Positions 35,230 through 62,161 of a stretch of DNA of 64,000 nucleotides are shown here, one piece after another. Within the stretch, counting starts at the first letter, position 1. Every line of letters begins with the position of its first letter. This stretch comes from Steroidobacteraceae bacterium (GTDB taxonomy: Bacteria; Pseudomonadota; Gammaproteobacteria; Steroidobacterales; Steroidobacteraceae). The DNA lies in NCBI GenBank assembly GCA_036267975.1, contig DATAVA010000026.1, positions 8,482 to 72,481 on the forward strand, written 5' to 3'. The translations under genes were made by a program, and so were the position numbers. The notes below the pieces were generated by a model that saw nothing but the letters and a program-made list of their open reading frames with translations, was not told where the DNA came from and did no database searches.

Positions 35230-37701
35230 TTATTCGTCCCTGAACTGATAACTGACGGTCACCCCCACCGTGCGCGGTGTGGACACCACCGCCTGGTAGA
35301 AGCTCGCGTAGTTGAATGGATCGGACCAAGAGCTGATGCCCAGTGTGTCCGTCAGGTTATTGCAGTACGCCGCCAGCATCCAATGGGAAACATCCCAGGT
35401 CAGGCGCGTATCGACGGTGGTGTAGCCGGGCACGGTCGGAATCGTGGCCGAAAGGGCCGGGATCAGCGAGCTTTGATAATGGACACTCAACGAGTAGGCA
35501 AGTTCACCTTGGCCCAACCTGACGTGGCCATAGGTGAGCGTAGCCGCGACGCTGGATTTGGGCGTCGCCGGCAACGGGCCGCCGGGCGCCGGCGGCGGTA
35601 CCGCAAGTCCCGCCAGGGCATCGTCGGCATAGGACAGCAGCTTGGTCTGGTCATAGGTATAGGACAGCTGGGCGCTCAGGCGCGCGGTGATATTGGCGAA
35701 AATATCGGTCTCGATGCCCTTGCTGTAGGCGTGGCCGACATTGATGGCACCGGGCAGCACCAACGGCGTCAGCTGCGCGCCCTCCTGGACATGCTGCCAA
35801 TCGATGTAGAACACATCCGCCGAATAGCGGACCCGGTTGGCAATCGTGCCCTTGAGGCCGACCTCGTAATTGTCGGCGGTGTCCGGTGCGACCTTGTACA
35901 GCGCCGGGTCAGTGGTGTAGTTGACGGCTGGCTCGTTGGGAGGCAGCGCGTTGACACCGCCGCGCCGGAAGCCCTGAGACCAGGTGGCGTACACTAGGTT
36001 GGTGGGATCGAGCTGATAGGACGTGTTCATCTTCCACAGTGCCCGGCGCCAGGTGTCGCTCAAGGAGTTGTTGGCGATTGACTCCGGACCGTCAAACAGC
36101 AGTCCTGTCTGCTGCGACTGAGCCACGGTCTGCTTGAACAGACGCGCGCCACCGGTGACGCTCCACGGATCGAAAATATGCCAGGTGAGTTCTCCGAAGG
36201 TCGCCAAGTCCGTGAATTTGGTTTCGAAGTCGCCGATGTAGGCCTGGTCGAGGACGATGGGGATACCGTCCACATAGTTTGGCGGATTGCCGGGTGTGTA
36301 GGCCGTCTCCCCGATGCCACACTCGGATGGGGTCACGCCATCACCGTTGCTCACACCGTACAGCGGCACGCAGGCGTTGAAGAAATCGTTATAGCCGTGA
36401 TAGAACTCATGCTCCTGAATGTCCGTGGTTTCGTTGCGATAGAACAGACCCGCGATCCAATCGAGCCTGCCGCCGGACTTGGAGGCCAGCCGGATTTCCT
36501 CGGCCCAGGGCTTGTCGTTGAGTTCGTCGTGACCGGTAACCAGAACGCGCGGATTGGCGCCGTACAGGGACGGATAGAATGGGAACGAGGAGTACAGCCC
36601 CGTCAGATCGGAGTTGGCGTGGTTGACGTGCCGTCCCCAGGAGGAGTTCGACGTCAAGGTCGCAAATCCCAGCTCATCATTGAGTGTCAGCGCAATCACA
36701 TCCACCTTGTCCTGCGTGGAGCCGCGCGTGAGATCTGTGGACTGGTAAGTGTCCACGCCGTATTGCGGCGAGGAGTAAGGAAAGCCGCCGGCCGTAGAGT
36801 ACTGGTTGTAGTAGGACAGCTGCGCCTTGAAGGTGTCGGTGGGCTTCCACAGCACGGAGGTACGGGCCGAGCGATAGGTGTACCCATTGGTTCCCTTGGC
36901 AGAGCCTGTCACGGCCGGACTGAACGGGTCGGCGGGGTTTTGGAGAATGGGGGCGCCGCTGGCATCCAGCGCGTACAGATGGGGCTGATCGATGAACCCG
37001 GCATCATTCGTGTAGCTGGCATTTGCCCGTATGGCAAGTGTACTGCTGAGCGGAATATTGATCATTCCGCTGATATCGGCATTCGCCCGATGGGTATGGT
37101 CGGTGTCACTGCCGCCCGTGGAAAACTTCGCGTCAAAGGCTTCCGGATCGGGCGCGTTCTGTACGTAGCGAATCGTGCCGCCCAGCGAGCCCGACCCGTA
37201 CAGCGTGCCTTGCGGACCGCGGAGGATTTCCACGTGATCGAGGTCATCCAGCCGCAGGTTTACATACAACGGGGTGTCGTCGACGTAGGTGGCAACCGGC
37301 GGCACGATGGGCGTGGCCAGTGCCAGCTGCCCGGCCGTGGCCTCGCTGTTGAGGCCGCGGATGATGAGCGTCGAGCCATTGGCATCCCCAAACGGTCCCT
37401 TGTCGGTGTAGTTGATTCCGGCCATCGAACGCGCGAGGGAAGCGACATCCTCGATGCCGGCGGCTTCGAGCTGGTAGCCGCTGACCGCGATGATGCTCAT
37501 CGGCAGTTCCTGAGCCGAAGCCTCGCGGCGTGTCGCCGTGACAGTGACTTCCTGGAGCGTGTCGACCTCGTCCGCCGTCGCCGTGGCGCTGGCCGCGGCA
37601 TCGGTGAGCACATCCGCCGACCAGGCGGCGGTGCCATACACAGCGGTGAGTACTGCGAGCGTGATCGTGCGGGTGGGACGCGTCGGCTTTGAAGTCTTCA
37701 A
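35230..37701 (-). CDS. TonB-dependent receptor (downstream of guanidine-I riboswitch)
   Basis: Start refined to TTG 37701, 7 nt after GAGGAG (MKTSKPTRPTRTITLAVLTAVYGTAAWSA). Plug LQEVTVTATRRE...IIRGLNSE, a long beta-barrel, and it ends VTVSYQFRDE. Confidence 0.88.
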   Translation of the reverse strand: MKTSKPTRPTRTITLAVLTAVYGTAAWSADVLTDAAASATATADEVDTLQEVTVTATRREASAQELPMSIIAVSGYQLEAAGIEDVASLARSMAGINYTDKGPFGDANGSTLIIRGLNSEATAGQLALATPIVPPVATYVDDTPLYVNLRLDDLDHVEILRGPQGTLYGSGSLGGTIRYVQNAPDPEAFDAKFSTGGSDTDHTHRANADISGMINIPLSSTLAIRANASYTNDAGFIDQPHLYALDASGAPILQNPADPFSPAVTGSAKGTNGYTYRSARTSVLWKPTDTFKAQLSYYNQYSTAGGFPYSSPQYGVDTYQSTDLTRGSTQDKVDVIALTLNDELGFATLTSNSSWGRHVNHANSDLTGLYSSFPFYPSLYGANPRVLVTGHDELNDKPWAEEIRLASKSGGRLDWIAGLFYRNETTDIQEHEFYHGYNDFFNACVPLYGVSNGDGVTPSECGIGETAYTPGNPPNYVDGIPIVLDQAYIGDFETKFTDLATFGELTWHIFDPWSVTGGARLFKQTVAQSQQTGLLFDGPESIANNSLSDTWRRALWKMNTSYQLDPTNLVYATWSQGFRRGGVNALPPNEPAVNYTTDPALYKVAPDTADNYEVGLKGTIANRVRYSADVFYIDWQHVQEGAQLTPLVLPGAINVGHAYSKGIETDIFANITARLSAQLSYTYDQTKLLSYADDALAGLAVPPPAPGGPLPATPKSSVAATLTYGHVRLGQGELAYSLSVHYQSSLIPALSATIPTVPGYTTVDTRLTWDVSHWMLAAYCNNLTDTLGISSWSDPFNYASFYQAVVSTPRTVGVTVSYQFRDE

Positions 37702-37803
37702 GATCCATCTCCTCACAAACCTGCATGAACAGGTCTGATTGCGCTGGCCAAATTCGGCCAATTGCGAGGATGTCTTGCGTGTCCCGGAGGTTCTCCTGGT
37801 GCA

Positions 37804-37842
37804 GGAGATCTCTCGGGGCGTCATCCCCGCAGCCAGATCTCC
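37804..37842 (-). promoter_or_regulatory. Candidate expression-platform hairpin of the riboswitch
   Basis: On the minus strand GGAGATCT (37842-37835, the last bases of the aptamer) pairs perfectly with AGATCTCC (37811-37804). There is an inner CGGGG/CCCCG helix and no U-tract. Confidence 0.4.
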
Positions 37843-37945
37843 CGGGCTTTTGTCCCGCCGTGTATCCACCGTCGCAGGAAGATTCCTGGAAGTGGACTGC
37901 CTCTCTCGGACCAGTCGCCTGCAAACAGGCCGGAACCCTAGACGC
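37838..37945 (-). promoter_or_regulatory. Guanidine-I (ykkC/yxkD, subtype 1-like) riboswitch aptamer
   Basis: Minus strand reads GCGTCTAGGGTTCCGGCCTGTTTGCAGGCGACTGGTCCGAGAGAGGCAGTCCACTTCCAGGAATCTTCCTGCGACGGTGGATACACGGCGGGACAAAAGCCCGGGAGA. All conserved ykkC blocks I recall are present in order: CUAGGGUUCCG, GGUCCGAGAG, ACACGG, GGGA, AAAAGCCCGGGAGA. Supporting helices are GCCTG/CAGGC, TCCAC/GTGGA and CAGG/CCTG. Confidence 0.85.
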
Positions 37946-37988
37946 ACATTTCAATGAGGAACCTGCAAGGCACGTGCCTGTCGTGCGA

Positions 37989-39008: not shown

Positions 39009-40427
39009 CTATACGAGCTCGATGCCGGCACGCCGGAGTCGTGCGGCGATAGGCGCCAGGGGAGCCTCGTACTGTCTCCATAAGTCGACTGAAGTTGAGT
39101 AGATCGGGCCTCGGACCTGTGCGGCGCTCGCGGTGGTGCTGGCTGCGCCGCGCTGTCCGATATCGAGGCAGTCATCGCTCCATCCAAGACCACAGTGATC
39201 AAACACCCGTCGTGCTTCAGTCGCCGGCGATGTCACCAGCGTGTCATACGACACATCGAGGATCGCCTGCGGAATCACGCGGCGCCAGTGGGTCATGAGC
39301 CGGTGGTAGCCAATGTAGTAGTCGGCGATCTCACCGAGGTCGTACGAAAATGGATAGCCTTGGTTAAAGAGTGTTTTGAAAACGGCGTAGCAGGTCGCCA
39401 TCGGATGCCGCTGCATGTGCAGGATGCGCGCATTCGGCAGCGCAGCGTGGATGATTCCACCATAGAGATAGTTCAGCGGCATCTTGTCTATAAAGTAGGG
39501 TGTATGGCCGGTGCGTGGCCGTGTCCGCTCGAGATACGAAGCACCGAGGCTCGTGAAGTCGATCGTCGTGCTGGCAGCGACCATGTCGCGTCGCGAAATC
39601 TGATGTGTTCCGATCCTTTTGCGGATGGCATCAACAAGGACCGCCGCGAAATCGATCAACTCGCCTGCGGCGTATACCCCGGCGTTGCCGCTCATGATCC
39701 GCTCCAGGAGCGTGGAGCCGGTTCGCGGCATTCCGAGAATGAATATGGGCTCGGTGCTGCGACACCCGCGGGTATCCAGCCGCGCTTCGGGAAATGACTG
39801 AACTATCCAGCTGACAGAGTCGACATCATGTCGAATATCATAGTGTAGGTTACGGCGCCGAATGGCCGCGCCGGCCGCGAGGTGCTCCCATGATACGGCA
39901 TGTTGACCGATATCTTCGTACTCCTTGGCAAGCGCATACCGGATCGGCACCTCCCCGGTTGGCGCGCCAAAGCCCACGCGCAATCGTTTCAGCAGCGCTT
40001 CTATATGATTGCGGCCGGGCGTCTGCCTGCGCAGTTCCGAGCGGTTGTACCAGGCCTCGACATCCGCCGGATCGGTCGCGATGACACGGTCGTAATCGCT
40101 TTCCGCATCATCAGTCCTGCCGACAAAACGACGCACGGTGGCCCGATTGAACAAGTAGCGCGGATTGTCAGCATCGCGAACCAGCGCTTGATCGTACGCG
40201 GCGCATGCCTCGTGATATCGCTCCAGGCGGCCCAGGAACTCGCCCAGCACAGCAAAGTCATTGGCTTGCCTTGCCGCGGTGCGCGCGGCGTCGATAGCCT
40301 CGTTCAGCTCCTGCCAGCGCCGGGCCGCGCGCAGCGCGGTCGCAAGACGAATCCATGCCTGCGTGCTGCGCTCCCCCTGGGCAATCGCGCCTTGCGCCGC
40401 AGCGACCGCATCGAAGGCTGCCCCCAT
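39009..40427 (-). CDS. TPR-repeat sulfotransferase-family protein
   Basis: 472 aa. N-terminal TPR-like helices, then PAPS-binding-type ILGMPRTGSTLLERIMS and a later RHPMATCYA block. Starts 3 nt after the ABC ATPase stop. Confidence 0.8.
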   Translation of the reverse strand: MGAAFDAVAAAQGAIAQGERSTQAWIRLATALRAARRWQELNEAIDAARTAARQANDFAVLGEFLGRLERYHEACAAYDQALVRDADNPRYLFNRATVRRFVGRTDDAESDYDRVIATDPADVEAWYNRSELRRQTPGRNHIEALLKRLRVGFGAPTGEVPIRYALAKEYEDIGQHAVSWEHLAAGAAIRRRNLHYDIRHDVDSVSWIVQSFPEARLDTRGCRSTEPIFILGMPRTGSTLLERIMSGNAGVYAAGELIDFAAVLVDAIRKRIGTHQISRRDMVAASTTIDFTSLGASYLERTRPRTGHTPYFIDKMPLNYLYGGIIHAALPNARILHMQRHPMATCYAVFKTLFNQGYPFSYDLGEIADYYIGYHRLMTHWRRVIPQAILDVSYDTLVTSPATEARRVFDHCGLGWSDDCLDIGQRGAASTTASAAQVRGPIYSTSVDLWRQYEAPLAPIAARLRRAGIELV

Positions 40428-40430
40428 CGT

Positions 40431-41270
40431 TCAGTCCTGGGCCGAGGTGCGCGATAGCTTCTGCAGCAAATCCAGGTCGGTCTTCATGCCCGAGGTGGAT
40501 CGAATGCGCTCCAGAAGCGCCAGCTTCAGTTCCAGGAACACGGTTTGATGTTTCATCGGTTGCGATCGCTCGAGCGCCAGGGGCACCGGATACACCGTAT
40601 CCACGCGCCCGGGACGCGGTGCCATCAGGACCACGCGTCGGCCCAGATAGATTGCCTCCTCAACATCGTGCGTGACAAAGATTACCGTGCACAATTCCAG
40701 CTGCGAGACATGCAGGATCAGGTCATGCATGACCTCACGGGTCTGCGCATCCAATGCGCCGAAGGGCTCATCCATCAGCAGGATCCGCGGCCGGCTCATC
40801 AGGGCACGCGCGATGGCGACGCGTTGCTGCATGCCGCCCGAAAGCTGGTTCGGGTAGGCATCCGCCACTGCGGTCAGTCCCATGACGGCCAGCAGTGCTT
40901 CAGCGCGACCGGCTGCGACCTCGACATCGGCGCTGGTGCGATCGCGAGTGTGGGCAGCGAGCTGCCGTGTGAACTTGATGTTGCCAATCACCGTCAGCCA
41001 CGGGTACAAGCTGTAGTTTTGAAAGACCATGGCGCGATCCACGTCGGGACCGCTGATCGGCGCCCCGTCCACGGTGATTTCGCCGGCGCTCTGAGTTTCG
41101 ATTCCCGCAATCGTACGCAGCAGCGTCGACTTGCCGCATCCCGATGCCCCCACCAATGTGATGAACTCACCCTCTTCGACGCTGAGGTTGATGTCCTGCA
41201 GCGCTGTCAGCGCACGGGGACCGTTCCCGAAGGTCTTCCAGACTCCCTTGCACTGCACTGCAGTCGACAT
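40431..41270 (-). CDS. ABC transporter ATP-binding protein, NitT/TauT family
   Basis: ATG 41270. Walker [10 protein letters not shown], signature [15 protein letters not shown], Walker [13 protein letters not shown]. Confidence 0.9.
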
Positions 41271-41272
41271 GC

Positions 41273-42079
41273 TCAGCTTCGCAGATAAAGCCACGGGAAG
41301 GCCTTGCGGTGCATCAGGCGGAAAGTCTGATCCATGGCCAGTCCGATCAGGCCGATGAGAATGATGCCGCAGAAGATCTTGTCGGTTTGCAGGAAGCGCT
41401 GCGCCTTGATGATCGCGTACCCAAGGCCGGAGTTGGCCGCGACCAGTTCGGCAACGACCAGGTAGGTCCAGGCCCAACCCATCGTGATGCGCAGCGTATC
41501 CACCAGTCCCGGCTTCACTGACGGAATAATCACCAGCTCGATGATCTCCAGGCGCGAGGCGCCCATGGTCTGTGCCGCCTCGATCTGCGCCATCGGCACA
41601 CGCCTGACATCCTCCGCGACCATCAGCACCATCTGGAAGAAGGTACCGATGAAGATGATGCCAATCTTGGCCCCCTCATCGATGCCGATCCAGAGCATCA
41701 CCAGCGGGATGAAGGCCACGGCCGGCATGTAGCGGATGAAATCGGTGAGCGGCTCAAGCAACGCCTGCACGGAACGATAGGTACCAATGAACAGTCCCAA
41801 CGGCAGTGCGATCAGCGCGGACAGCGCCCAGCCTGCGACGACACGCATGGTGCTGATCGCGATATCGGCCAGCAACTCATCGTTGGTGTACCAGGTGCCG
41901 ACGCGTTTCAGCACGCTCAAGGGTCCGGGCAGGAACACCGGATTGACGATGCCGGTGGCGGAGAGGGTGGACCAGCCAATCAAAGGCAGCAGCAGTCCGA
42001 CGGTCGCCAGTATCCAGTAGCGCTGCTGCGTGATGGTGCCCCTGATGGTCCAGAATCCCATGGCACTTGCGCTCCTCAC
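41273..42079 (-). CDS. ABC transporter permease, NitT/TauT family
   Basis: 268 aa, 6 TMS, EAA-like loop AAQTMGASRLEIIELVIIPSVKP. Its start overlaps the SBP stop. Confidence 0.9.
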   Translation of the reverse strand: MRSASAMGFWTIRGTITQQRYWILATVGLLLPLIGWSTLSATGIVNPVFLPGPLSVLKRVGTWYTNDELLADIAISTMRVVAGWALSALIALPLGLFIGTYRSVQALLEPLTDFIRYMPAVAFIPLVMLWIGIDEGAKIGIIFIGTFFQMVLMVAEDVRRVPMAQIEAAQTMGASRLEIIELVIIPSVKPGLVDTLRITMGWAWTYLVVAELVAANSGLGYAIIKAQRFLQTDKIFCGIILIGLIGLAMDQTFRLMHRKAFPWLYLRS

Positions 42080-43056
42080 CGCTTCAATGCAGCGGACAGA
42101 ATCGAGCCGTCCACACCTTTGGCCGGGTCCGGCTTGCCGTCGATCAGTCGATTCGCCAGCAGGAAGGCGGCAATCTGCGGCGCCACGGTGACCAGACTCG
42201 AGGAGCTCGCGGGATTGAACCCATCAAGATTTGCCGCGGCGTCGAAGAAGCGTGTGCCTGGAAGGAAGACCTTGTAGTCGGCCGGATTCATGCCCACCAC
42301 CTTGGACATAATTTTTACCGCGGCGTCGGGATTGTTCTTGATGAAGTTCACGGTGTCTAACCATGCACGTGTCATGCCGATCAGGTCCTGGCGCTTGTTC
42401 CGGATCGCCGACTCCTGTGCGACCAGCAGGTCCGGAATCAGGCCAGCCATGTCACGCGAGGTGAACAGCGCACGTCCCTTGCCGGATTTCTCGATCTGGC
42501 TGATCCAGGGATTCCACACGACCGCGACCTCGACGCGCCCGCTGATGAATGCTGCCGCGGCGTCCCCGGCCGCCAGGTTGACCACGGTGACATCGCGAGG
42601 GGTGAGTCCGTGGCGGGCAAGCGCGGTGTAGAGCACGAAGTGCGACACGCTGAACTGCTCCAGTGCAACTTTCCTGCCCTTCAAGTCCGCAAAGCTGTGG
42701 ATCTTGGGACTGACCATCAGCGCGTCATTACCGAAGGAGTTGTCGTTGATCAGGACGGCCTTGAGCGGCAGCCCCTTCTGCAGCGGCCCGAGCGTGTCGG
42801 ACCAGGTCTGGCTGTTGGCATCCAACTGCCCGGTGGACAGCGCCGCGATTGAATCGCTGTAATTGGCGAACCAGATCAGCTTCACATCGGCGCCGTATTT
42901 CTTGAAATATCCCTGGTTCTCGGCGACGTACCAGGCAACCCAACCGGTCCAATCGGAGACGCCGACCTTGATTTCGGCGGTGGCTGGCGTGGTAAATGCG
43001 GTGAGCAGTGCGACTGCGGCGATGGCGGCCAAGGTGAGGGGAAATCGGCTCTTCAT
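42076..43056 (-). CDS. ABC substrate-binding protein (NMT1/THI5-like, urea-carboxylase-region type)
   Basis: 326 aa with a signal peptide ending ATAEIKVGVSDWTGW. Overlaps the allophanate hydrolase stop (ATGA). Confidence 0.85.
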   Translation of the reverse strand: MKSRFPLTLAAIAAVALLTAFTTPATAEIKVGVSDWTGWVAWYVAENQGYFKKYGADVKLIWFANYSDSIAALSTGQLDANSQTWSDTLGPLQKGLPLKAVLINDNSFGNDALMVSPKIHSFADLKGRKVALEQFSVSHFVLYTALARHGLTPRDVTVVNLAAGDAAAAFISGRVEVAVVWNPWISQIEKSGKGRALFTSRDMAGLIPDLLVAQESAIRNKRQDLIGMTRAWLDTVNFIKNNPDAAVKIMSKVVGMNPADYKVFLPGTRFFDAAANLDGFNPASSSSLVTVAPQIAAFLLANRLIDGKPDPAKGVDGSILSAALKR

Positions 43057-44888
43057 GAGGATGACTCCGGACTTGCGGGCTGAGTTGGGGGGGTTGATGA
43101 CATGGACGCGACATACGCGCGCCAGCCGCCCATCGAGGTGATGTCGCGAGCGCCCTCAATGGCGCGCGGCTCGGCGACGAATCCTTTGACGATGCTCCCG
43201 TCCGCGAGGACGATGCTGCCGATGGCCAGTGGAGCCGGGATTTCGGCGACAAAGCTGCCGAATGCAGCGAGGTCCAGGTCATAGACCTCGACGGCGATGG
43301 CGCTGCCGCCGCCGCGCGTGCCGGTGTGAATGAGGGCCGGTTTCGGTGGTGTCGTGTTGGCCATCGCGTAGAGGCGGTAGGCGGGTGCCGTATGGGTGGC
43401 GCCGACCAGTCGCGCGTGTCGCGAACTGAGCTGCCAGTGCAGCGGCATGCCGGACAGGTGCGCACCGACCACGGCCACCTGCACGCTCAGGGCGCGCGGC
43501 GTCAGATCCAGCGGCGGATTCACAATTGCCGGTGAACTGTTCAGATAGCGTTGCGCAAGATTCAGCAGCGCGCGATCCATGAATGCCTTGCCGACCAGGG
43601 TGATGCCGAAGCCGGTGTGATTGGCGCGGAATCCGGCGGGCACGGCCACGGCGCTCAGATCCATCAGGTTCACGAAATTCGTATACAGCCCGAGGTTGGC
43701 ATTCAGCGTGACGGGCTCGGCCAGCAGTTCACTCACGCGATAGATGGTCGGGGCGGTGGGTAGTACCAGCACATCAATGACGGACCAGAGTGTTTCGGCC
43801 TGGCGCATGAGTGCCTGCAGTTCATGTTGTCCGCGGAATACCTGTACACCGGTAGTCGCTGCGCCCGCGGCAATGATTGCGCGCACTACCGGATGAATCG
43901 CCCCGGATCGCGTGCGCAGGAAATCCTCGATGGCCGCGGTGCGTTCGGCGACCCAGGGTCCGCAGTACAGCAGCTGTGCTGCATTCAACAGCGCTGCGAT
44001 ATCCACTTCCACCGCGGTGCCACCGGCGGCCACCACTCGGGTGAGTGCTTCGCGGTATAGGCGCGAGGATGATTCGTCGCCAAAGAACTGCAGTTGTTCA
44101 GGTCGCGGCACGCCGAAATGGAAGGCGGGCCCCAGCATGGGCGGCGCCAGCGGATGACGTGCGTACGGGTCCGCGGCGTCAAAGCCTGCGACGACTTCAT
44201 CGACCATCGCCGCATCGTCCACATTTGCAGCGAGTACCGTGATGCAGTCTAAGGAGCGACACGCCGGCACCAGCCCCTGAGTGCTCCAGCGACCCCGGGT
44301 CGGCTTAAATCCGATCAGGCCATTGAATGCCGCCGGAACCCGCCCTGAACCGGCGGTGTCGGTGCCCAGGGCGAAGACCACCAGGCCGGCAGCGACGGCG
44401 ACGGCGGAGCCGGAACTGGATCCGCCGCTGATGAATTCGCGGTTGAATACGCAGCGCGGTGCGCCGTACGGGCTGCGCGTGCCCGCCAGGCCCGTTGCGA
44501 ACTGGTCCAGATTGGTCTTGCCAAGACACACCGCGCCGGCCGCCAGCAGGCGTTGCACCGTGGTGCTCGAGCGCTGCGCAGCATAGGCGAAGCCCGGGCA
44601 GGCCGCGCTGGTCGGCATGCCCTCGACATCGATATTGTCCTTTACCGCAAACGGCACCCCCGCCAGCGACAGTCGCTCTCCGCTGGCCACGCGGGCATCC
44701 ACCTCATGCGCCTGCTGCAGCACATCGCTGTCGCCGGCACGGTGGATAAAGATTTCCGGCTGAACGGGTGCGTACGCGGCGACGCGCAGCAGAGTCTGCG
44801 CCGCGATGTCGACAGCCTTGACGCGGCCGGCGTTGACGTCAGCGCTGATTTGAGCCACTCCCCACTGCAGCCGCGCATCGCCGGTCAT
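43053..44888 (-). CDS. atzF: Allophanate hydrolase
   Basis: Start refined to ATG 44888, overlapping the carboxylase TGA. Amidase signature GGSSSGSAVAVAAG plus a C-terminal AH extension. 611 aa. Confidence 0.9.
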   Translation of the reverse strand: MTGDARLQWGVAQISADVNAGRVKAVDIAAQTLLRVAAYAPVQPEIFIHRAGDSDVLQQAHEVDARVASGERLSLAGVPFAVKDNIDVEGMPTSAACPGFAYAAQRSSTTVQRLLAAGAVCLGKTNLDQFATGLAGTRSPYGAPRCVFNREFISGGSSSGSAVAVAAGLVVFALGTDTAGSGRVPAAFNGLIGFKPTRGRWSTQGLVPACRSLDCITVLAANVDDAAMVDEVVAGFDAADPYARHPLAPPMLGPAFHFGVPRPEQLQFFGDESSSRLYREALTRVVAAGGTAVEVDIAALLNAAQLLYCGPWVAERTAAIEDFLRTRSGAIHPVVRAIIAAGAATTGVQVFRGQHELQALMRQAETLWSVIDVLVLPTAPTIYRVSELLAEPVTLNANLGLYTNFVNLMDLSAVAVPAGFRANHTGFGITLVGKAFMDRALLNLAQRYLNSSPAIVNPPLDLTPRALSVQVAVVGAHLSGMPLHWQLSSRHARLVGATHTAPAYRLYAMANTTPPKPALIHTGTRGGGSAIAVEVYDLDLAAFGSFVAEIPAPLAIGSIVLADGSIVKGFVAEPRAIEGARDITSMGGWRAYVASMSSTPPTQPASPESSS

Positions 44889-47800
44889 ACCTCGTGCCCT
44901 TGCGTTTCCAGCGCGATGATGGCCGCGCCCGGATTGATGGCCTGTCGCGGTTGCACATACACCGCCCGCACAATGCCGGCCTGCGGGGCCGGCACATCGC
45001 ATTCCATCTTCATCGCTTCGATGACAGCAATTACCGTGCCGCGTGCAACCCGGTCCCCGGGCCGCACGTTGACCTTCCAGACATTGCCACCCAATGGGGC
45101 TTCGAGTACCTCGCTGCCGGCTGGGATCACGGAGGTGATCGCAGCCACATCGGCAGGTTCCTGCAGCAGTTTCTCGACCCGGGAGAACTCCTTGTCGCGC
45201 ACCCAGGCTTCGCGCTCGGCCTCGAATGCGGCCTGTCGCTGCGTCTGGAAAGTCTCGATGGCCGGTGCGTTCGCCGCCAGGAAAAGGCGATAGGCGGCGA
45301 GGCTGAAGGTCGCCGATTCGATACGGACATCGCGGCGGCCGAGGGGAAAGTCGCGGCGCCATTCCGTCAGCTCCGCATGGCTGACGGGAAAGAAACGGAT
45401 CTGGTCGAAGAACCGCAGCAGCCACGGCTTATCTTCGGTGAAGGCCTTGGTCTGTTGCCAGGTGTTCCACATCTGCACGGTGCGCCCGAAGAGCTGGTAG
45501 CCCCCGGGGCCCTCCATCCCGTAGATGCACAGGTAGGCGCCGCCGATTCCCACCACGTTCGGTGGCGTCCAGGTGCGCGCCGGGTTGTACTTGGTCGTCA
45601 CCAGCCGATGACGCGGGTCGAGAGGGGTGGCCACGGGCGCGCCGAGGTAAACATCGCCCAGTCCCATGACCAGGTAGCGTGCGTCAAAGACGATGTCGCG
45701 CACGGCATTGATCGACGGCAGTCCATTTATGCGGCGGATGAATTCGATGTTATCCGGGCACCAAGGCGCGTCACTGCGGACGCTGGCCATATACTTTTCG
45801 ATGGTTGCGTAAATCGCCGGGTCGCCCCAGGACAATGGCAGATGAATGACCCGTGAGGGGATGCTGAACTCAGTGAGGTCACCGATCCGATCCTCGGCAT
45901 CCGCGAGCGCGGCAAGCAAGGCGTCCTGAGTCAGCACGCGGCTGTCGAAGTGCACCTGCAAGGAGCGCACGCCGGGGGTGATGTCGATGACACCGGGCAG
46001 GGCACGACGCTGCAGCTCGAGCATCAGGGCATGGATCCGAATTCGCAGTGTCAGATCCAACATCAAGGGGCCGTACTCCACCAGGATGTGGCGGTCGCCC
46101 TGACGCCGATACACCACCTGGGGGCGCTGGCTGCGCGCCGCAATAGTGTCCAGGACGGGACTGTGCTGCGGCTTTCCACGCGCTGCGCTGGATGGGAGTG
46201 GCGGCGGCGGATCGCCGAACAGCGCTTCCATCGAATCCTCCGCGGCGCGTGCCTGCGTGTCGCTGACGATCTCGAAGCTGAGGCTGTCACCCGGGGCCAG
46301 CTGCCCCACCTTCCACAAATCGGCCTGGATTACGACCAGAGGGCATACGAATCCGCCCAGCGAGGGGCCGTCAGGTCCCAGGATGATGGGCATGTCGCCG
46401 GTGAAGTCGATCGTCCCGATGGCGTAGGCGTTGTCGTGAATGTTCGAGGGATGCAGTCCCGCCTCGCCACCATCGCGCCGCGCCCAGCGCGGGCGCGGCC
46501 CGATCAGGCGCACGCCGGTGCGGCTGGAGTTGTAGTGCACCTTCCAAGGCACACTGCTCAGCATGTCGATATCTTCGGGGGCGAAGAAGTCCGGTGCCCC
46601 GTGCGGACCGTACAATACCCGCAGCACCCACGCATGCGTGAGCCGCGGCGGGGAAATCGCAAGGGCATTGGCGGTGGTGGCAACGGGGCGCGGCTCACAC
46701 AGCCGCAGCACGTCACCGGCAACGAGCGTGCGACCGGCGTGTCCGCCAAATCGGCCCAGCGTAAAGGTGGAGCGGCTGCCGAGGTACACGGGCACATCGA
46801 TGCCTCCCGCAAGCAGCAGGTACGCGCGCATGCCGGCGCCACGGATGCGGCCCAGCTTCAGGGTCTGGCCGGCGCGAATCCGGACTGGCCGGAAGGCATC
46901 GATGGCGGCACCGTCGACGGATGCTTCGAGGGCGGCCCCCGTCACGCAAATGCGTGTGTCACGCCGGAACAGCAGCACCGGACCGTGCAACGTGATCTCC
47001 AGTCCCGCCGCATCCGGTGGATTGCCCAGCAGCTGGTTTCCGATGCGAAAGCTCAACGCATCCATCGGACCGCTGGGCGGTACGCCGACGTCCCAGTAAC
47101 CGCGGCGTCCAGGATGGTCCTGCACCGTCGTCGCAAGGCCGCCGCTTTGCACGCGTATCGTCTGCGGCTGGAACTGGATCGACTGTGCCATCGCGGTGAA
47201 GAGCTGACCGCTGACGAAGGCCTCGCTGCGCGCGGCCTGCCGCAGCCATTCGAGATTGGTCTCCAGTCCCTGCAAAGCAGTATGGTCCAGCGCCGTTTGC
47301 ATGGCACGCACGGCGCTGTCCCGGTCGCGCGCGGTGACAATGAGCTTGGCCAGCAGCGGGTCGTAGCAGGCGCTGACCTCGCTGCCGTCGGTCACCCAGG
47401 TCTCCACCCGCACATTCGGTGCGAACTTCACTTGGGACAGAACGCCGCTGCAGGGGCGGAAATCCTGGTCTGGGTCCTCGGCATAAATACGTGCCTGGAT
47501 CGAGGCGCCAACGCTGGCATCCTTCCAGGTGTCCAGAAAATCTAGCTCGCCCGCGGCGCCGCGAACCATCCATTCAACGAGGTCCACGCCGGTGACCTGC
47601 TCCGTGACTCCGTGCTCGACTTGCAGTCGGGTATTCACCTCGAGGAAGAAGAACTGATCGCGCTCGGGGTCGTACAGGAACTCCACGGTTCCTGCTGAGA
47701 GATAGTGCGCCGCACGACCCAGACGCAGGGCCGCATCGCGCAGGCTGGCGCGCGTGGCAGCGGGAAGATGCGGCGCAGGCGCTTCCTCCATCAGCTTCTG

Positions 47801-48502
47801 GTTGCGGCGCTGCAAGGAGCAGTCACGCTCGCCCAGCGCGACGACCCGACCGGCCCCGTCGCCGAAAATCTGCACTTCGATATGGCGCGCGCGCGGTACA
47901 AAGCGCTCCAGATAGACTCCGCCATTCGCAAAATTGCTGCCCGCGAGACGCTCGATGGAAGCGAATGCCTCGCGCACTGTGGCGGCGTTTTCGCAGGTAC
48001 GCATGCCGATACCCCCGCCGCCGGCGGTGGCCTTGAGCATGACCGGATAGCCCACCCGCTCAGCCGCATGAACCGCGGTATGCTCATCGCCAAGCAGGTC
48101 ACTGCCCGCCATGAGTGGCAGGCCCGCCTGCTGCGCGATCTGGCGAGCGGTGTGCTTGAGGCCAAAGGCACGGATATTCTCCGGCGTAGGTCCGATGAAA
48201 GTGAGGCCAGCCTGCGCGCAGCGTTCGGCGAACTGCGCGTTCTCGCTCAGAAAGCCATAACCCGGGTGAATGGCAGTGGCGCCGGTGCTGCGGGCGGCCG
48301 CGATGATGGCATCCATGTGCAGATAGCTCTGTGCGGCAGGTGCAGGCCCGATACGCACGGCCGCGTCGGCCTCGCGAACATGCAGCGAGCCTAAGTCCGC
48401 GTCCGAGTACACCGCGACCGAATCTATCCCCAAGCGGCGCAGGGTGCGAATGATGCGGCACGCAATCGCGCCACGATTGGCGATCAGGACCTTGTTGAAC
48501 AT
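44885..48502 (-). CDS. uca: Urea carboxylase-type biotin enzyme (likely guanidine carboxylase)
   Basis: 1205 aa. Biotin carboxylase N-terminus MFNKVLIANRGAIACRIIRT, KipI/KipA-like carboxyltransferase middle region, biotinyl motif EAMKME. Confidence 0.92.
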   Translation of the reverse strand: MFNKVLIANRGAIACRIIRTLRRLGIDSVAVYSDADLGSLHVREADAAVRIGPAPAAQSYLHMDAIIAAARSTGATAIHPGYGFLSENAQFAERCAQAGLTFIGPTPENIRAFGLKHTARQIAQQAGLPLMAGSDLLGDEHTAVHAAERVGYPVMLKATAGGGGIGMRTCENAATVREAFASIERLAGSNFANGGVYLERFVPRARHIEVQIFGDGAGRVVALGERDCSLQRRNQKLMEEAPAPHLPAATRASLRDAALRLGRAAHYLSAGTVEFLYDPERDQFFFLEVNTRLQVEHGVTEQVTGVDLVEWMVRGAAGELDFLDTWKDASVGASIQARIYAEDPDQDFRPCSGVLSQVKFAPNVRVETWVTDGSEVSACYDPLLAKLIVTARDRDSAVRAMQTALDHTALQGLETNLEWLRQAARSEAFVSGQLFTAMAQSIQFQPQTIRVQSGGLATTVQDHPGRRGYWDVGVPPSGPMDALSFRIGNQLLGNPPDAAGLEITLHGPVLLFRRDTRICVTGAALEASVDGAAIDAFRPVRIRAGQTLKLGRIRGAGMRAYLLLAGGIDVPVYLGSRSTFTLGRFGGHAGRTLVAGDVLRLCEPRPVATTANALAISPPRLTHAWVLRVLYGPHGAPDFFAPEDIDMLSSVPWKVHYNSSRTGVRLIGPRPRWARRDGGEAGLHPSNIHDNAYAIGTIDFTGDMPIILGPDGPSLGGFVCPLVVIQADLWKVGQLAPGDSLSFEIVSDTQARAAEDSMEALFGDPPPPLPSSAARGKPQHSPVLDTIAARSQRPQVVYRRQGDRHILVEYGPLMLDLTLRIRIHALMLELQRRALPGVIDITPGVRSLQVHFDSRVLTQDALLAALADAEDRIGDLTEFSIPSRVIHLPLSWGDPAIYATIEKYMASVRSDAPWCPDNIEFIRRINGLPSINAVRDIVFDARYLVMGLGDVYLGAPVATPLDPRHRLVTTKYNPARTWTPPNVVGIGGAYLCIYGMEGPGGYQLFGRTVQMWNTWQQTKAFTEDKPWLLRFFDQIRFFPVSHAELTEWRRDFPLGRRDVRIESATFSLAAYRLFLAANAPAIETFQTQRQAAFEAEREAWVRDKEFSRVEKLLQEPADVAAITSVIPAGSEVLEAPLGGNVWKVNVRPGDRVARGTVIAVIEAMKMECDVPAPQAGIVRAVYVQPRQAINPGAAIIALETQGHEV

Positions 48503-49131
48503 CAGATATGTCCGGCGATCACCATGCGCAGGGCCGTGGGATTAAAACCATTGCAGGGGTTGTTGATCTGGGGGCAGTTGGAAACCACGGCCGTCAGATC
48601 CATCTGCGCCCTCAGGTCCACGTGCAGCCCCGGGGCGGATATGCCGTCGACGATACCCAAGGTCCCGTCGGCTTCGATTGGTACATTCATGAACCAGTTG
48701 ATGTTGGACACCATGTCGCGCTTGCCCCGCCCGTAGCGCAGATTGGCGGCGAGAAAATTTTCGACACATGCGTGCTGCGACTGGGTATGGAAGCCGTAAC
48801 GCAAGGTATTGCTCTCGCAGCTGCACGCTCCACCGATGGTGTCGTGATGGTCGACATCGGTGCCTGCGATCAGCGCCATGGGATTACCTTCATTCGAATA
48901 CAGCATCGAGCCTTGGCGCAGGTACACATTGTGCTGCGCCGCGATGGTCTCCTGTGCGCTGTAGCGCTCGGCGTCATCCGCTGTCGCATACATCAGGAAG
49001 TCGGCGGATTGATTGCCCTGCAGATCAATGATGCGCAGGGTTTGCCCTTTGCGCACCCGATGTGACCACGGCGCCCGCGATGGCACGATCTGATCCAGGA
49101 TGATCGGCCCCAATCCGGCCAGCGCATTCAT
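48502..49131 (-). CDS. Urea-carboxylase-associated DUF1989 protein 2 (carboxyguanidine deiminase subunit type)
   Basis: ATG 49131 lies behind GAGGTG. 209 aa, paralogous to 49139..49960. Its stop overlaps the carboxylase ATG by 1 nt. Confidence 0.85.
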   Translation of the reverse strand: MNALAGLGPIILDQIVPSRAPWSHRVRKGQTLRIIDLQGNQSADFLMYATADDAERYSAQETIAAQHNVYLRQGSMLYSNEGNPMALIAGTDVDHHDTIGGACSCESNTLRYGFHTQSQHACVENFLAANLRYGRGKRDMVSNINWFMNVPIEADGTLGIVDGISAPGLHVDLRAQMDLTAVVSNCPQINNPCNGFNPTALRMVIAGHI

Positions 49132-49138
49132 AATCACC

Positions 49139-49960
49139 TCACCGGGCAAAATAATCTTCAACGTTCAGAAAAGCCCGTAAGCCCTCCGGGGTCGCGTTGC
49201 GAAGCGGATCCTCCGCCGGCGTCGGCTCACCCCGCCAGGCGCTCATCCGGACCGGCGTCACCGTGTAATCGGCGCGCGCATCGAGTCGATGGGGACAGTT
49301 CGCCATCACGACAAAGACATTCATTTCGGCCCGAAGCGTCAGCGTGCGGCCCGGCGCGCAAGGGCCCGAGGCAAACTCGGTGGAGCCATCCGCGGTAATC
49401 CGAACGGCCTTGAACCAGTTGATGCAGGGATGAATGTCCCTGCGCCCCAGCCCGAATTTGCTGACCGCGAGGGCGAAGCGGTCGCGGGCGTTGGGATGGG
49501 CGCCCCAGCTATCCCCATCTCCGTACCTTGCGGCATTGGAGTGCACCGTCGAGGCACCGCAAAAGCAATCGTGGGTGCCGGCGCCATCTTCAATGACACT
49601 CATCAGCACGCGGCCCATATCCGAGAGCAGCAAGTGGCCCGCTCCCAGGTAGGCGTTCCACTGGACTTTGATGGTGTCCGCAACGTTCAAGCGTTCAACC
49701 GGGCGCTCCGCGTTGAAAACGAGCATGGAGACGCAGGCGTCGCCGAGCACGTCCTGCAGCTGCAGGCGTGCCCCGCGCCAAAGTTCCTTGCTGGCGTAGC
49801 CGCCCGCGCCCAGTGTCGTTTCCCACAGCATGCTGCTCGCGGGCACTCCCGGTGGCCGCGATGCTGCGACACCGGCTGGCAAGGTGGGCATAGCCGCTAC
49901 CCGAATGTCGCCCATGGCCCGGGCGTGCGCCCGGGCGCTGTGAGGGTCGGCCGTGCTCAC
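49139..49960 (-). CDS. Urea-carboxylase-associated DUF1989 protein 1 (carboxyguanidine deiminase subunit type)
   Basis: 273-aa ORF. Its GTG start overlaps the TGA of the NikR-like gene. Blocks such as NCPH/INWF are shared with 48502..49131. Confidence 0.85.
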   Translation of the reverse strand: MSTADPHSARAHARAMGDIRVAAMPTLPAGVAASRPPGVPASSMLWETTLGAGGYASKELWRGARLQLQDVLGDACVSMLVFNAERPVERLNVADTIKVQWNAYLGAGHLLLSDMGRVLMSVIEDGAGTHDCFCGASTVHSNAARYGDGDSWGAHPNARDRFALAVSKFGLGRRDIHPCINWFKAVRITADGSTEFASGPCAPGRTLTLRAEMNVFVVMANCPHRLDARADYTVTPVRMSAWRGEPTPAEDPLRNATPEGLRAFLNVEDYFAR

Positions 49961-50445
49961 CGTGCACCTCGAATAGAACGTGGCGCGGGACTTGCGGGCT
50001 GCTCGGCGCCATGCGAATGCAGTGGTGGCAGCAACGCGGTGGTGGTGACCAGTTTGATTTGCTGTACGCCGCGTACCGTGCGCAGGGCATCACATAGCGA
50101 ATGCAGGCGCACCGCCGGACCTTGCACCAGCAGCACCTCCAGTGACTGGTCGTCCTCGAGCAGGACGTGCTGCGAGGAGATCACTTCCTTGACGTAGGCG
50201 GTTTGGGTGTTGGCTAGCGCATGCCGCACCCGGCCGCTCTCGGCCTTGTAGATCAAAGTGAGGGTGCCGGCGAGTACCGCGTCATCGCGACTCTCGCTGT
50301 GCTCAGCCAATTCGTGACGAATCAGCTCAGCGATCATCTGGGAGCGGCTTGGGAGGGCGCGCTCGGCGACCATGTCATCCAGCTGCGTGAGCAGTTCAGC
50401 CGGCAGGCTGATACTCAAACGTGCAAGTTGCGGCAGTACGTCCAC
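49957..50445 (-). CDS. NikR-fold ribbon-helix-helix regulator (CopG/NikR family)
   Basis: 162 aa. RHH LSISLPAELLTQLDDMVAERALPSRSQMIAELIR followed by an ACT-like C-terminal domain that aligns to NikR_C. Confidence 0.8.
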   Translation of the reverse strand: MDVLPQLARLSISLPAELLTQLDDMVAERALPSRSQMIAELIRHELAEHSESRDDAVLAGTLTLIYKAESGRVRHALANTQTAYVKEVISSQHVLLEDDQSLEVLLVQGPAVRLHSLCDALRTVRGVQQIKLVTTTALLPPLHSHGAEQPASPAPRSIRGAR

Positions 50446-50459
50446 TAGGGCAGCCCCGT

Positions 50460-50489
50460 AGTATTACTAAAATTGAGTTTAGTAATACT
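50460..50489. promoter_or_regulatory. Perfect 12-6-12 inverted repeat, NikR-operator-like (GTATTA-N16-TAATAC)
   Basis: AGTATTACTAAA-ATTGAG-TTTAGTAATACT. An AT-rich island in GC-rich DNA, 15 to 44 bp upstream of the regulator start codon. Confidence 0.7.
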
Positions 50490-50609
50490 CCAGGAGGGTG
50501 CGCCCCTGTCAAGCGAGTGCGCGAAGATGGTGCAGGTTAGCCGCAGGCGCGCCACGCAAGTGCGCCTGCGTCCCGATGCGCCGCGCGTGAGCGGCGCCGC
50601 TTGCGGGTA

Positions 50610-51245
50610 TTAGGGAGTAATGCTTAGGAACACCACTTCGGCGGTGCCGTTGGCGCCCGGCTTGGCGGCTCCGTTGACCTTTACGCCCGGCCTCACCATG
50701 GCGGGAGAGCCCGCGTCGATCTTGGTAATGTCCGTGTCCGCACCGACGTGGATGGCCTGCTCACCACCCCTGTAGGTCACCTTGATGGTGGCGCTGGCGC
50801 TGCCGGAGTTGGCGGTCACCTGGCCATTGGTCATGGTGGCGACATTGCCGTTGGTCATGGTGGTGTTCGGGGGCCCCATCGGATTGTGCCCTTCACCCAT
50901 GCCACGCATGGATTCAGGGAAAATATGGCATTCCGTCGCATGCAGCAGGTTGTCGGCGCGCTTGACGGCCGTGCAGCCGACAAACTTGCCCGGACCCAGG
51001 TCGGCCACCGTGCCTTTGCCGCTCACCATGATGTTCGGCTTGTCAGGAAAGGTAAGCTTCACATCGCCCCCCTGCTGGGAATGAACCACGAAGCTGTTGC
51101 CGCTGGCACTGGCGACGGTACCGCCGAAACGGATCAGGCCGGCGAAGGGATTCGGCGGCGCGGAGGAGGCCTGCGCGAGCACCGGCCCGGTTGCGGCCGC
51201 ATACAGCAGCAGGCCACAGGCGGTCATCAGGGTTCTGAGGGTCAT
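50610..51245 (-). CDS. Hypothetical secreted protein with Met/His-rich segment
   Basis: 211 aa with a signal peptide ending VLAQA. Central CTAVKRADNLLHATECHIFPESMRGMGEGHNPMG and a TMTNGNVATMTNG repeat. Confidence 0.65.
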   Translation of the reverse strand: MTLRTLMTACGLLLYAAATGPVLAQASSAPPNPFAGLIRFGGTVASASGNSFVVHSQQGGDVKLTFPDKPNIMVSGKGTVADLGPGKFVGCTAVKRADNLLHATECHIFPESMRGMGEGHNPMGPPNTTMTNGNVATMTNGQVTANSGSASATIKVTYRGGEQAIHVGADTDITKIDAGSPAMVRPGVKVNGAAKPGANGTAEVVFLSITP

Positions 51246-61865: not shown

Positions 61866-61899
61866 GGACAAGCAGCCCCGGCTGGTATACTGCAGCCGT

Positions 61900-62075
61900 T
61901 AGTAAACGCTCAGGGTTCCCCGCAAGGGGATTTGAATGGGAACGCGGTGCGATGCCGCGGCTGCCCCCGCAACTGTAACCGGCGAGTAATCGTCCTTGAC
62001 TGCCACTGGGCCTCGCGGCTTCGGGAAGGCGGACGAGCACTGTGACCCGGGAGTCAGGAGACCAGCCCTGTGCCG
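61900..62075 (+). promoter_or_regulatory. Cobalamin riboswitch
   Basis: GGTTCCCCGCAAGGGGA..TGAATGGGAACGCGGTG..GCCGCGGCTGCCCCCGCAACTGTAA..GCCACTGGG..GGGAAGGC..GAGTCAGGAGACCAGCC (B12 box 62052-62067), immediately upstream of btuB. Confidence 0.9.
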
Positions 62076-62161
62076 TCGTCCATGCTTTTGGCCGGGGTGT
62101 GTCATGAGCTGCGGGTAATCCGCTGCGACGACTTTGTTGTGTCGTTGTTGCGGAGAATGTT

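Follow-up and report, generated by a model that had tools for sequence, protein, structure and literature searches.

What does a regulator of the NikR family respond to, and what does it control, when most of its nickel-binding residues are missing? The question is raised by a stretch of 64,000 nucleotides from a Steroidobacteraceae bacterium, here called the window, in which a gene on the minus strand (49957..50445) encodes a NikR-like protein of 162 residues and stands at the head of an operon containing a biotin-dependent carboxylase. The favoured answer, to which a probability of about 55% may be given, is that the protein is an autoregulated, NikR-type tetrameric repressor acting on an operon for guanidine uptake and carboxylation, with guanidine or one of its close relatives as inducer. 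The parts of this answer differ in strength: the assignment of regulator, operator and regulon is very likely to be right, while guanidine, as the effector we infer, has slightly less than even chances.

The open reading frame of the regulator starts with GTG at 50445 and ends at 49957. A ribbon-helix-helix (RHH) DNA-binding domain occupies residues ~6-50, an ACT-like NikR_C domain residues 57-135, and a C-terminal tail, LLPPLHSHG, residues 138-146. Both Pfam domains of the NikR architecture are matched above their gathering scores: NikR_C over residues 59-135 (E 3.1e-19, 69.4 bits against 22) and RHH_1 over residues 9-47 (E 3.9e-6, 27.1 bits against 20.5). By sequence, the closest solved structure is P. 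horikoshii NikR (2bj1), aligned by HMMER without gaps over residues 6-136, 131 residues in all (E 2.6e-22). The AlphaFold model, with a mean predicted local distance difference test score (pLDDT) of 74, features a beta-alpha-beta-beta-alpha-beta C-domain (residues 57-134); when the model is searched against the PDB by Foldseek, all of the 50 top matches are NikR chains, and isolated NikR metal-binding domains superpose on it with template modelling (TM) scores of 0.78-0.91 and root-mean-square deviations of 1.4-2.0 A. The NikR architecture, RHH plus ACT-like C-domain, which an earlier sequence-only reading of the window had proposed, is borne out by the Pfam scores and by the Foldseek result.

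The protein is nevertheless not a typical NikR. The NikR equivalogs are its best matches in NCBIfam, yet all of them score below their curated cutoffs: 99 against 105 for NF003381, 61.7 against 83 for NF002815 and 57.1 against 175 for TIGR02793. In the databases it goes under the names "CopG family ribbon-helix-helix protein" or "CopG family nickel-responsive transcriptional regulator". Judged on these comparisons and on those that follow, it is a NikR-family member in the Pfam sense, which departs from a nickel-responsive NikR in its ligands, in its equivalog scores and in its regulon.

In E. coli NikR, the high-affinity square-planar nickel site is formed by His87, His89 and Cys95, together with His76 from the adjacent chain (PMC7055735). 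In a MAFFT alignment, the residues facing E. coli His76, His87, His89 and Cys95 are Thr82, His93, Leu95 and Ser101: one ligand of the four is kept. The same columns are obtained by HMMER, where the 2bj1 motif "qHeY..ssLHVHmdehnC" faces "qTaY..ssQHVLleddqS" in the regulator. That only the equivalent of His87 is kept, on a NikR scaffold devoid of the square-planar site, had been proposed from columns aligned by eye: the two programs reproduce these columns exactly, and the alignments to 2bj1 and to E. coli NikR support the proposal. Whether a rigorous alignment restores the four ligands had been named beforehand as a test, and the ligands are not conserved. A canonical NikR with a misaligned site was considered as well, and ruled out on the gapless HMMER alignment and its concordance with MAFFT.

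Orthologues were collected by scanning one genome per GTDB species, which gave 80 loci; alignments and operator counts refer to 79 of them. The four ligand columns hold R/G/L/S/V/A/T in the first, H (62) or N (17) in the second, F (49) or L (30) in the third and S/A/V/T in the fourth: the loss of nickel ligands is common to the whole clade. At the second (K+/low-affinity) site, E. coli Glu30 is replaced by Gln36 (Gln in 77 of the 79 orthologues) and Asp34 by Glu40. Arg3, Thr5 and Thr7, the DNA-reading strand residues of E. coli NikR, face Arg9, Ser11 and Ser13 in the regulator; at these three columns 78, 77 and 78 of the orthologues have R, S/T and S, respectively.

These orthologues belong to a wider group. 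When 1.84 billion representative proteins were searched exhaustively with HMMER, 895 matches at E <= 1e-3 were obtained. The residues at the four E. coli ligand columns may be written as a four-letter code, HHHC for canonical proteins: among the best 150 matches, nearly all of those above ~90 bits lack HHHC, the first canonical protein appears at 91 bits (41% identity), and HHHC becomes dominant below 70 bits. The codes found within the branch include HHHT, xHHT, HHQT, RHQR, xHFS, xHLS, xNFA and others, the four columns being occupied by R/H/A/Y/C/S, H/N/R/Q, H/Q/F/L/N and T/R/S/A/V, respectively. The ligand-less proteins share traits not seen in canonical NikRs: Glu87, an "LVQGP" loop (with Gln108 and Pro110) and an extended C-terminus that finishes in (I/L)xPP(L/I/V)H, a tail that is absent from HHHC proteins and whose histidine is ~85% conserved across the branch. 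Sequence comparison places the regulator in a large and diverse NikR branch, without the full ligand set and with a C-terminal PPxH tail of its own. The old nickel site looks freed from constraint in this branch: since its columns vary freely, a common effector site, if any, must be elsewhere. The tail (residues 138-146) may harbour a new ligand site or act as an interface element.

The genes downstream of the regulator, all on the minus strand, encode an ATP-dependent guanidine carboxylase pathway and an importer. The first (49139..49960) encodes a DUF1989 protein of the UAAP1 type (TIGR03425, 291.6 bits against a cutoff of 206), the second (48502..49161) a DUF1989 protein of the UAAP2 type (TIGR03424, 317 bits against 285): heteromers of such proteins (CgdA/CgdB) are carboxyguanidine deiminases (PMC11410670), and the two products are assigned as the deiminase subunits. 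They are followed by a biotin-dependent carboxylase of 1205 residues (44885..48502; TIGR02712, 1781 bits), labelled urea carboxylase in NCBIfam. Two aspartates, at K. lactis positions 1330 and 1584, serve as the criteria by which guanidine carboxylases are told from urea carboxylases (PMC11410670). Aligned to 3va7_A, whose chain index plus 593 gives the K. lactis numbering, the window carboxylase has Asp both at Asn1330 ("tiDftgd" against "AINFTGD") and at Asp1584 ("glgDvylg" against "GLGDVFLG"). The pathway is identified as one for guanidine because both Asp signatures are present in the carboxylase and because the DUF1989 pair corresponds to a carboxyguanidine deiminase; a true urea carboxylase was rejected on the two signatures and on the CgdAB pair.

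Further downstream are an allophanate hydrolase (43053..44888; Pfam Amidase and AH_C), the ATG start of which overlaps the carboxylase stop (ATGA), and an ATP-binding cassette (ABC) importer, assigned by Pfam and composed of an NMT1/uca-type substrate-binding protein (SBP; 42076-43056), a permease (41273-42079) and an ATPase (40431-41270), with genes overlapping or 2 nt apart. All junctions downstream of the regulator overlap or are separated by 3 nt at most: they read GTGA, TGATG, ATGA, ATGA and GTGA, and the last two are gaps of 2 nt and 3 nt. The first of them (GTGA at 49960..49957), where the regulator TGA overlaps the GTG of the first DUF1989 gene, had been noticed earlier, along with the leading position of the regulator in the carboxylase operon: both observations hold, the regulator being translationally coupled to the genes that follow. 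Nickel transport and nickel enzyme genes are absent from operon and regulon. A TPR/sulfotransferase gene (39009..40427; Pfam), beginning 3 nt past the ATPase stop, is possibly the last of the operon: it may be co-transcribed with the guanidine genes, and has no obvious role in the pathway.

The same association is found well beyond the window. The genome loci come from Steroidobacteraceae (regulator identity 90%), from Caulobacter and Phenylobacterium (73-83%) and from Verrucomicrobia (Haloferula, Luteolibacter, Rubritalea, Akkermansiaceae; 39-47%). By tblastn with the operon proteins of the window, the order regulator-UAAP1-UAAP2-carboxylase-hydrolase was seen in essentially all genome loci with a long enough contig. 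A further, independent set of 80 loci was obtained by scanning metagenome contigs with a 7-sequence alignment of distant branch members (RHQR and HHQT types). Most of these loci adjoin deiminase and carboxylase genes and/or the transporter, and most of those with RHQR, HHQT or HHHT regulators show the gene order of the genome loci. Taken together, the regulator lies directly 5' of the DUF1989 pair, carboxylase and allophanate hydrolase genes in ~120 of the 160 related loci, from Alpha- and Gammaproteobacteria, Verrucomicrobia and metagenomes. Its synteny with guanidine carboxylase genes is conserved across three phyla.

In Verrucomicrobia and in many metagenome loci, the ABC transporter genes stand apart, upstream, and are preceded by a further copy of the operator described below. 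In a minority of metagenome loci, mostly xHHT, the regulator comes last in an operon of SBP, permease, ATPase, creatininase-like and type III glutamine-synthetase-like genes. The locus labelled L154 (828-6459) shows them in the order SBP, permease, ATPase, creatininase-family hydrolase, type III glutamine-synthetase-like gene and NikR-like regulator; the hydrolase was seen in L154 only, the synthetase-like gene in L154 and L142. In these and in the other variant loci (L125, L126, L145, L150, L152) SBP, permease and ATPase genes come first, the regulator is HHHT or xHHT, no carboxylase genes lie downstream, and the operator is present only 5' of the SBP gene: here regulators of this branch may control another pathway for a guanidino compound.

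The predicted operator is a perfect 28-bp palindrome, GTATTAC-N14-GTAATAC (GTATTACTAAAATTGAGTTTAGTAATAC; 50461..50488), 16 nt upstream of the regulator GTG. In the window it is the single match to this pattern, even when 3 mismatches are allowed (0.16 expected by chance). Written as GTATTA-N16-TAATAC, it shows the 6-N16-6 layout known from the nik operator of E. coli, GTATGA-N16-TCATAC (PMC7055735), which is what a conserved DNA-reading strand would fit. A DNA site had been expected somewhere in 50440..50510: a conserved palindrome of the NikR type is more than had been guessed.

When 846 kb of the genome set were scanned for GTATKA-N16-TMATAC, with one mismatch at most, 64 of the 79 loci were seen to have the motif no more than 150 nt upstream of the regulator. 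Six other sites were detected, each of them just 5' of the transporter SBP gene in a verrucomicrobial locus. The metagenome set (520 kb) has the motif before the SBP gene in 22 of the 25 testable loci and before the regulator in 17. Three sites lie elsewhere, one of them between regulator and UAAP1. The conservation of the 6-N16-6 spacing would imply a tetrameric, NikR-like mode of binding. By the logic of a textbook regulon reconstruction, these sites point to a single operator used by a single regulator branch, with the transporter and the catabolic genes as its two targets. Verrucomicrobial operators often read GTATGA-N16-TCATAC (L064, L067, L071, L073-L076 and others; 66-86 nt 5' of the regulator), with half-sites identical to those of E. 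coli: motif-based prediction could wrongly call these guanidine operons nickel regulons.

The position of the operator gives a hint to the direction of control. A -35-like hexamer, TTGACA (50507..50512, minus strand), is located 18 nt upstream of the operator. It was recognized by its conservation: TTGAC(A/G) is found 17-19 nt upstream of the left half-site in nine of nine gammaproteobacterial relatives, where the flanks diverge. The left half-site occupies the expected -10 position (TATTAC). Repression is suggested because the operator overlaps this putative -10. In Phenylobacterium the operators carry a TTGAC motif in the spacer, while those of Gammaproteobacteria overlap the -10. Between the promoter region and the next gene upstream (50610..51245, minus strand; product without Pfam or NCBIfam match), a GC-rich 9-bp inverted repeat is present at 50542-50570 (CGCAGGCGC / GCGCCTGCG), which may be the terminator of that gene, though no T-run follows.

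The guanidine character of the locus is marked by an RNA element. A guanidine-I (ykkC) riboswitch was identified at 37837..37952 on the minus strand (Rfam RF00442, 87.1 bits against a cutoff of 63), 5' not of the operon but of a TonB-dependent receptor gene with Plug and beta-barrel domains (minus strand, frame open over 37947..35230, without a fixed start codon). The pair is a neighbour of the regulator operon, and lies outside it. In two other genomes riboswitch and receptor are directly upstream of the regulator (L006 3015-5879, L049 3048-5863), the receptor of the former being 55% identical to that of the window. The pairing, for which no literature was found, suggests outer-membrane uptake of guanidine or of a guanidino compound. 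A cobalamin riboswitch is also present in the window (61896-62084, plus strand; RF00174, 121 bits).

Elsewhere, the guanidine-I riboswitch usually, though not invariably, heads operons for guanidine carboxylase, deiminase, allophanate hydrolase and ABC transporter (PMC11410670). Here, no ykkC leader was found in front of the operon, either in the window or in 12 related loci, by Rfam at gathering thresholds. Nor was any found on carboxylase or transporter genes in the 80 genome loci by a covariance model, a weak one, built from two aptamers only. RF00442 matches were found only in front of TonB-dependent receptor genes, and the gap between regulator and UAAP1 in related loci is too short for a riboswitch. 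As the operons are without a ykkC leader, the regulator holds the regulatory position of the riboswitch. The sequence-only reading had anticipated this, placing the regulator where ykkC would be. The survey of regulator against ykkC leader that it called for revealed no operon with both in 80 loci; both occur in the window, on different genes.

The favoured mechanism may now be outlined. The ACT-like C-domain would assemble a tetramer carrying two RHH dimers, which would bind the two half-sites of the palindrome at 50461-50488. The operator being predicted to overlap the -10 region and the transcription start (-35 TTGACA, 50512-50507), the bound regulator would repress one long, translationally coupled operon of regulator, two deiminase subunits, guanidine carboxylase, allophanate hydrolase and ABC importer. 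The effector would be the substrate itself, guanidine as the guanidinium cation, or a very close relative, binding the C-domain and/or the PPxH tail. By loosening DNA binding it would bring about induction, combined with negative autoregulation, with a sign opposite to that of Ni-NikR. Guanidine is proposed because the pathway is one of substrate-inducible nitrogen scavenging; a transported substrate is favoured over a pathway intermediate since the variant loci without carboxylase share transporter and operator. Tetrameric binding, repression over activation, and identity and sign of the effector are what we infer from this arrangement.

A bolder form of the same idea, held tentatively since the odds are somewhat against it, is that a NikR metal-sensor scaffold was converted into an organic-cation sensor: the first protein transcription factor to sense free guanidine, with a regulon in at least three phyla. 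The ligand would lower DNA affinity through a new site involving the PPxH tail, and not through the old nickel site.

Several points weigh against the proposed mechanism. The main one is that a guanidine riboswitch is already present in the locus, so that the protein may read a different signal. Induction as proposed would reverse the response of canonical NikR, in which ligand promotes DNA binding. With nickel columns that vary freely, any common effector site would have to be elsewhere, and the candidate PPxH tail is modelled at low confidence in the AlphaFold monomer (pLDDT < 50). Some branch members, mostly xHHT, are found in loci without downstream carboxylase genes. The -10 assignment, TATTAC at a 19-nt spacing, is weak, and a strict sigma-70 consensus scan of 49900-50700 returned no promoter.

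Some of these points lead directly to other explanations. With the same architecture and regulon, the effector may be a co-repressor reporting nitrogen status, such as glutamine or another amino acid, acting through the ACT-like domain and shutting the operon off when nitrogen is plentiful; the guanidine specificity of the locus would then be supplied by the riboswitch-controlled receptor. ACT domains commonly bind amino acids, and the C-domain has the beta-alpha-beta-beta-alpha-beta fold; the NikR sign, with ligand promoting DNA binding, would be retained, a guanidine sensor is already next door in the genome, and variant loci pair the regulator with the type III glutamine-synthetase-like gene. 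This explanation is unlikely, all the same: the C-domain carries no identified residue signature of a known amino-acid-binding ACT site, the regulon is limited to guanidine uptake and catabolism, with no general nitrogen regulon, and in most bacteria guanidine alone controls this operon, via ykkC (PMC11410670). Marginally less probable still is another compound of the pathway, be it urea, carboxyguanidine, allophanate or a substituted guanidine, such as methylguanidine or guanylurea. Catabolic repressors often sense intermediates, and a protein sensor beside a guanidine riboswitch would make sense if the two ligands differ. The variant loci tell against it, as they have transporter and operator without carboxylase, deiminase and hydrolase genes: carboxyguanidine and allophanate, in consequence, cannot be the effector throughout the branch.

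Two explanations remain. A sensor of nickel or of another cation, with a non-canonical site made up of His93, His143 and His145 of the tail, and His49, could switch the nickel-free, ATP-costly guanidine/urea route depending on whether nickel enzymes, such as urease or guanidinase, are able to function. Of the 79 orthologues, 62 retain His93, the tail histidine shows the branch-wide conservation given above, some branch members retain three of the four ligands (HHHT), and the alternative guanidine route uses a nickel enzyme (PMC11410670). A link to metal status had been raised by the sequence-only reading as its own alternative: these histidines still speak for it, while the free variation of the old ligand columns, against a constant context and operator, weakens it. 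In the window regulator three of the four square-planar ligands are gone, as is the second-site Glu30, replaced by Gln; the Caulobacter group has Asn in place of His93; and the regulon is without nickel transport or nickel enzyme genes. A metal sensor is, on balance, improbable. Least probable of all is an autoregulator without ligand, or an activator in place of a repressor, in which the C-domain would be a tetramerisation scaffold setting the N16 spacing, and inducibility would come from other factors. The unconstrained ligand site agrees with it, as does the position of the operator relative to the promoter, which differs between lineages. On the other side, branch-specific conservation outside the tetramer core (Glu87, Gln108, Pro110, PPxH tail) suggests a selected function beyond that of a scaffold, and it would be unusual for a catabolic operon to be under a constitutive repressor that no inducer relieves.

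Several consequences would follow. For metalloregulation, a large branch that shed the nickel site, kept the DNA-recognition module nearly unchanged and took over an organic-nitrogen catabolic regulon would clearly illustrate how an effector can be exchanged while the DNA-binding framework stays fixed. In Caulobacterales, Steroidobacteraceae and Verrucomicrobia, control of the guanidine carboxylase pathway without a riboswitch would be accounted for by a protein regulator. If it senses free guanidine, this regulator would be a protein counterpart to the four classes of guanidine riboswitch, and GTATTAC-N14-GTAATAC would be its ready-made operator. It would also offer synthetic biology a protein-based switch. 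As to annotation, hundreds of database entries named "nickel-responsive regulator" are very probably misnamed, which would affect genome-based inference both of nickel regulons and of guanidine use, the latter often relying on riboswitch screening.

To our knowledge, the guanidine sensors known so far are RNAs. No literature was found linking NikR-like proteins to guanidine, urea carboxylase or allophanate hydrolase operons, passing mention elsewhere being possible; likewise, none was found on guanidine together with ribbon-helix-helix proteins, on protein regulators of guanidine carboxylase, or on NikR paralogues without nickel residues. A 2024 review, in the portion available, presents the NikR family only under metal and reactive-species sensing, with NiII as sole cognate signal (PMC11672702).

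Among known systems, three lend themselves to comparison. The guanidine-I riboswitch takes the same position at the head of the operon, and never shares an operon with the regulator in 80 loci; it is a cis-acting RNA with guanidine as its proven ligand, whereas the regulator would be a DNA-binding protein, with a ligand deduced from its context. MetJ is an RHH repressor with S-adenosylmethionine (SAM) as co-repressor: it would resemble the regulator in being set by an organic ligand, not by a metal, and in forming a higher-order oligomer on repeated half-sites. It differs by its operator architecture and by the absence of an ACT-like tetramerisation domain. NikR itself (E. coli, H. pylori, P. 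horikoshii; 2hzv, 2bj1, 6mrj) is the closest: in common are RHH and ACT-like C-domain, the Arg-x-Ser/Thr-x-Ser DNA-reading strand and a 6-N16-6 palindromic operator, with half-sites GTATTA in the window, and GTATGA both in verrucomicrobial members and in E. coli, which overlaps the promoter (an overlap that is only predicted for the window operon). Unlike NikR, the window regulator keeps one of the four nickel ligands, has Gln for Glu30 and scores below the NCBIfam cutoffs, and it adds a conserved C-terminal PPxH tail and the "LVQGP" loop; its regulon is one of guanidine uptake and catabolism instead of nickel transport, and its presumed response to ligand is opposite in sign.

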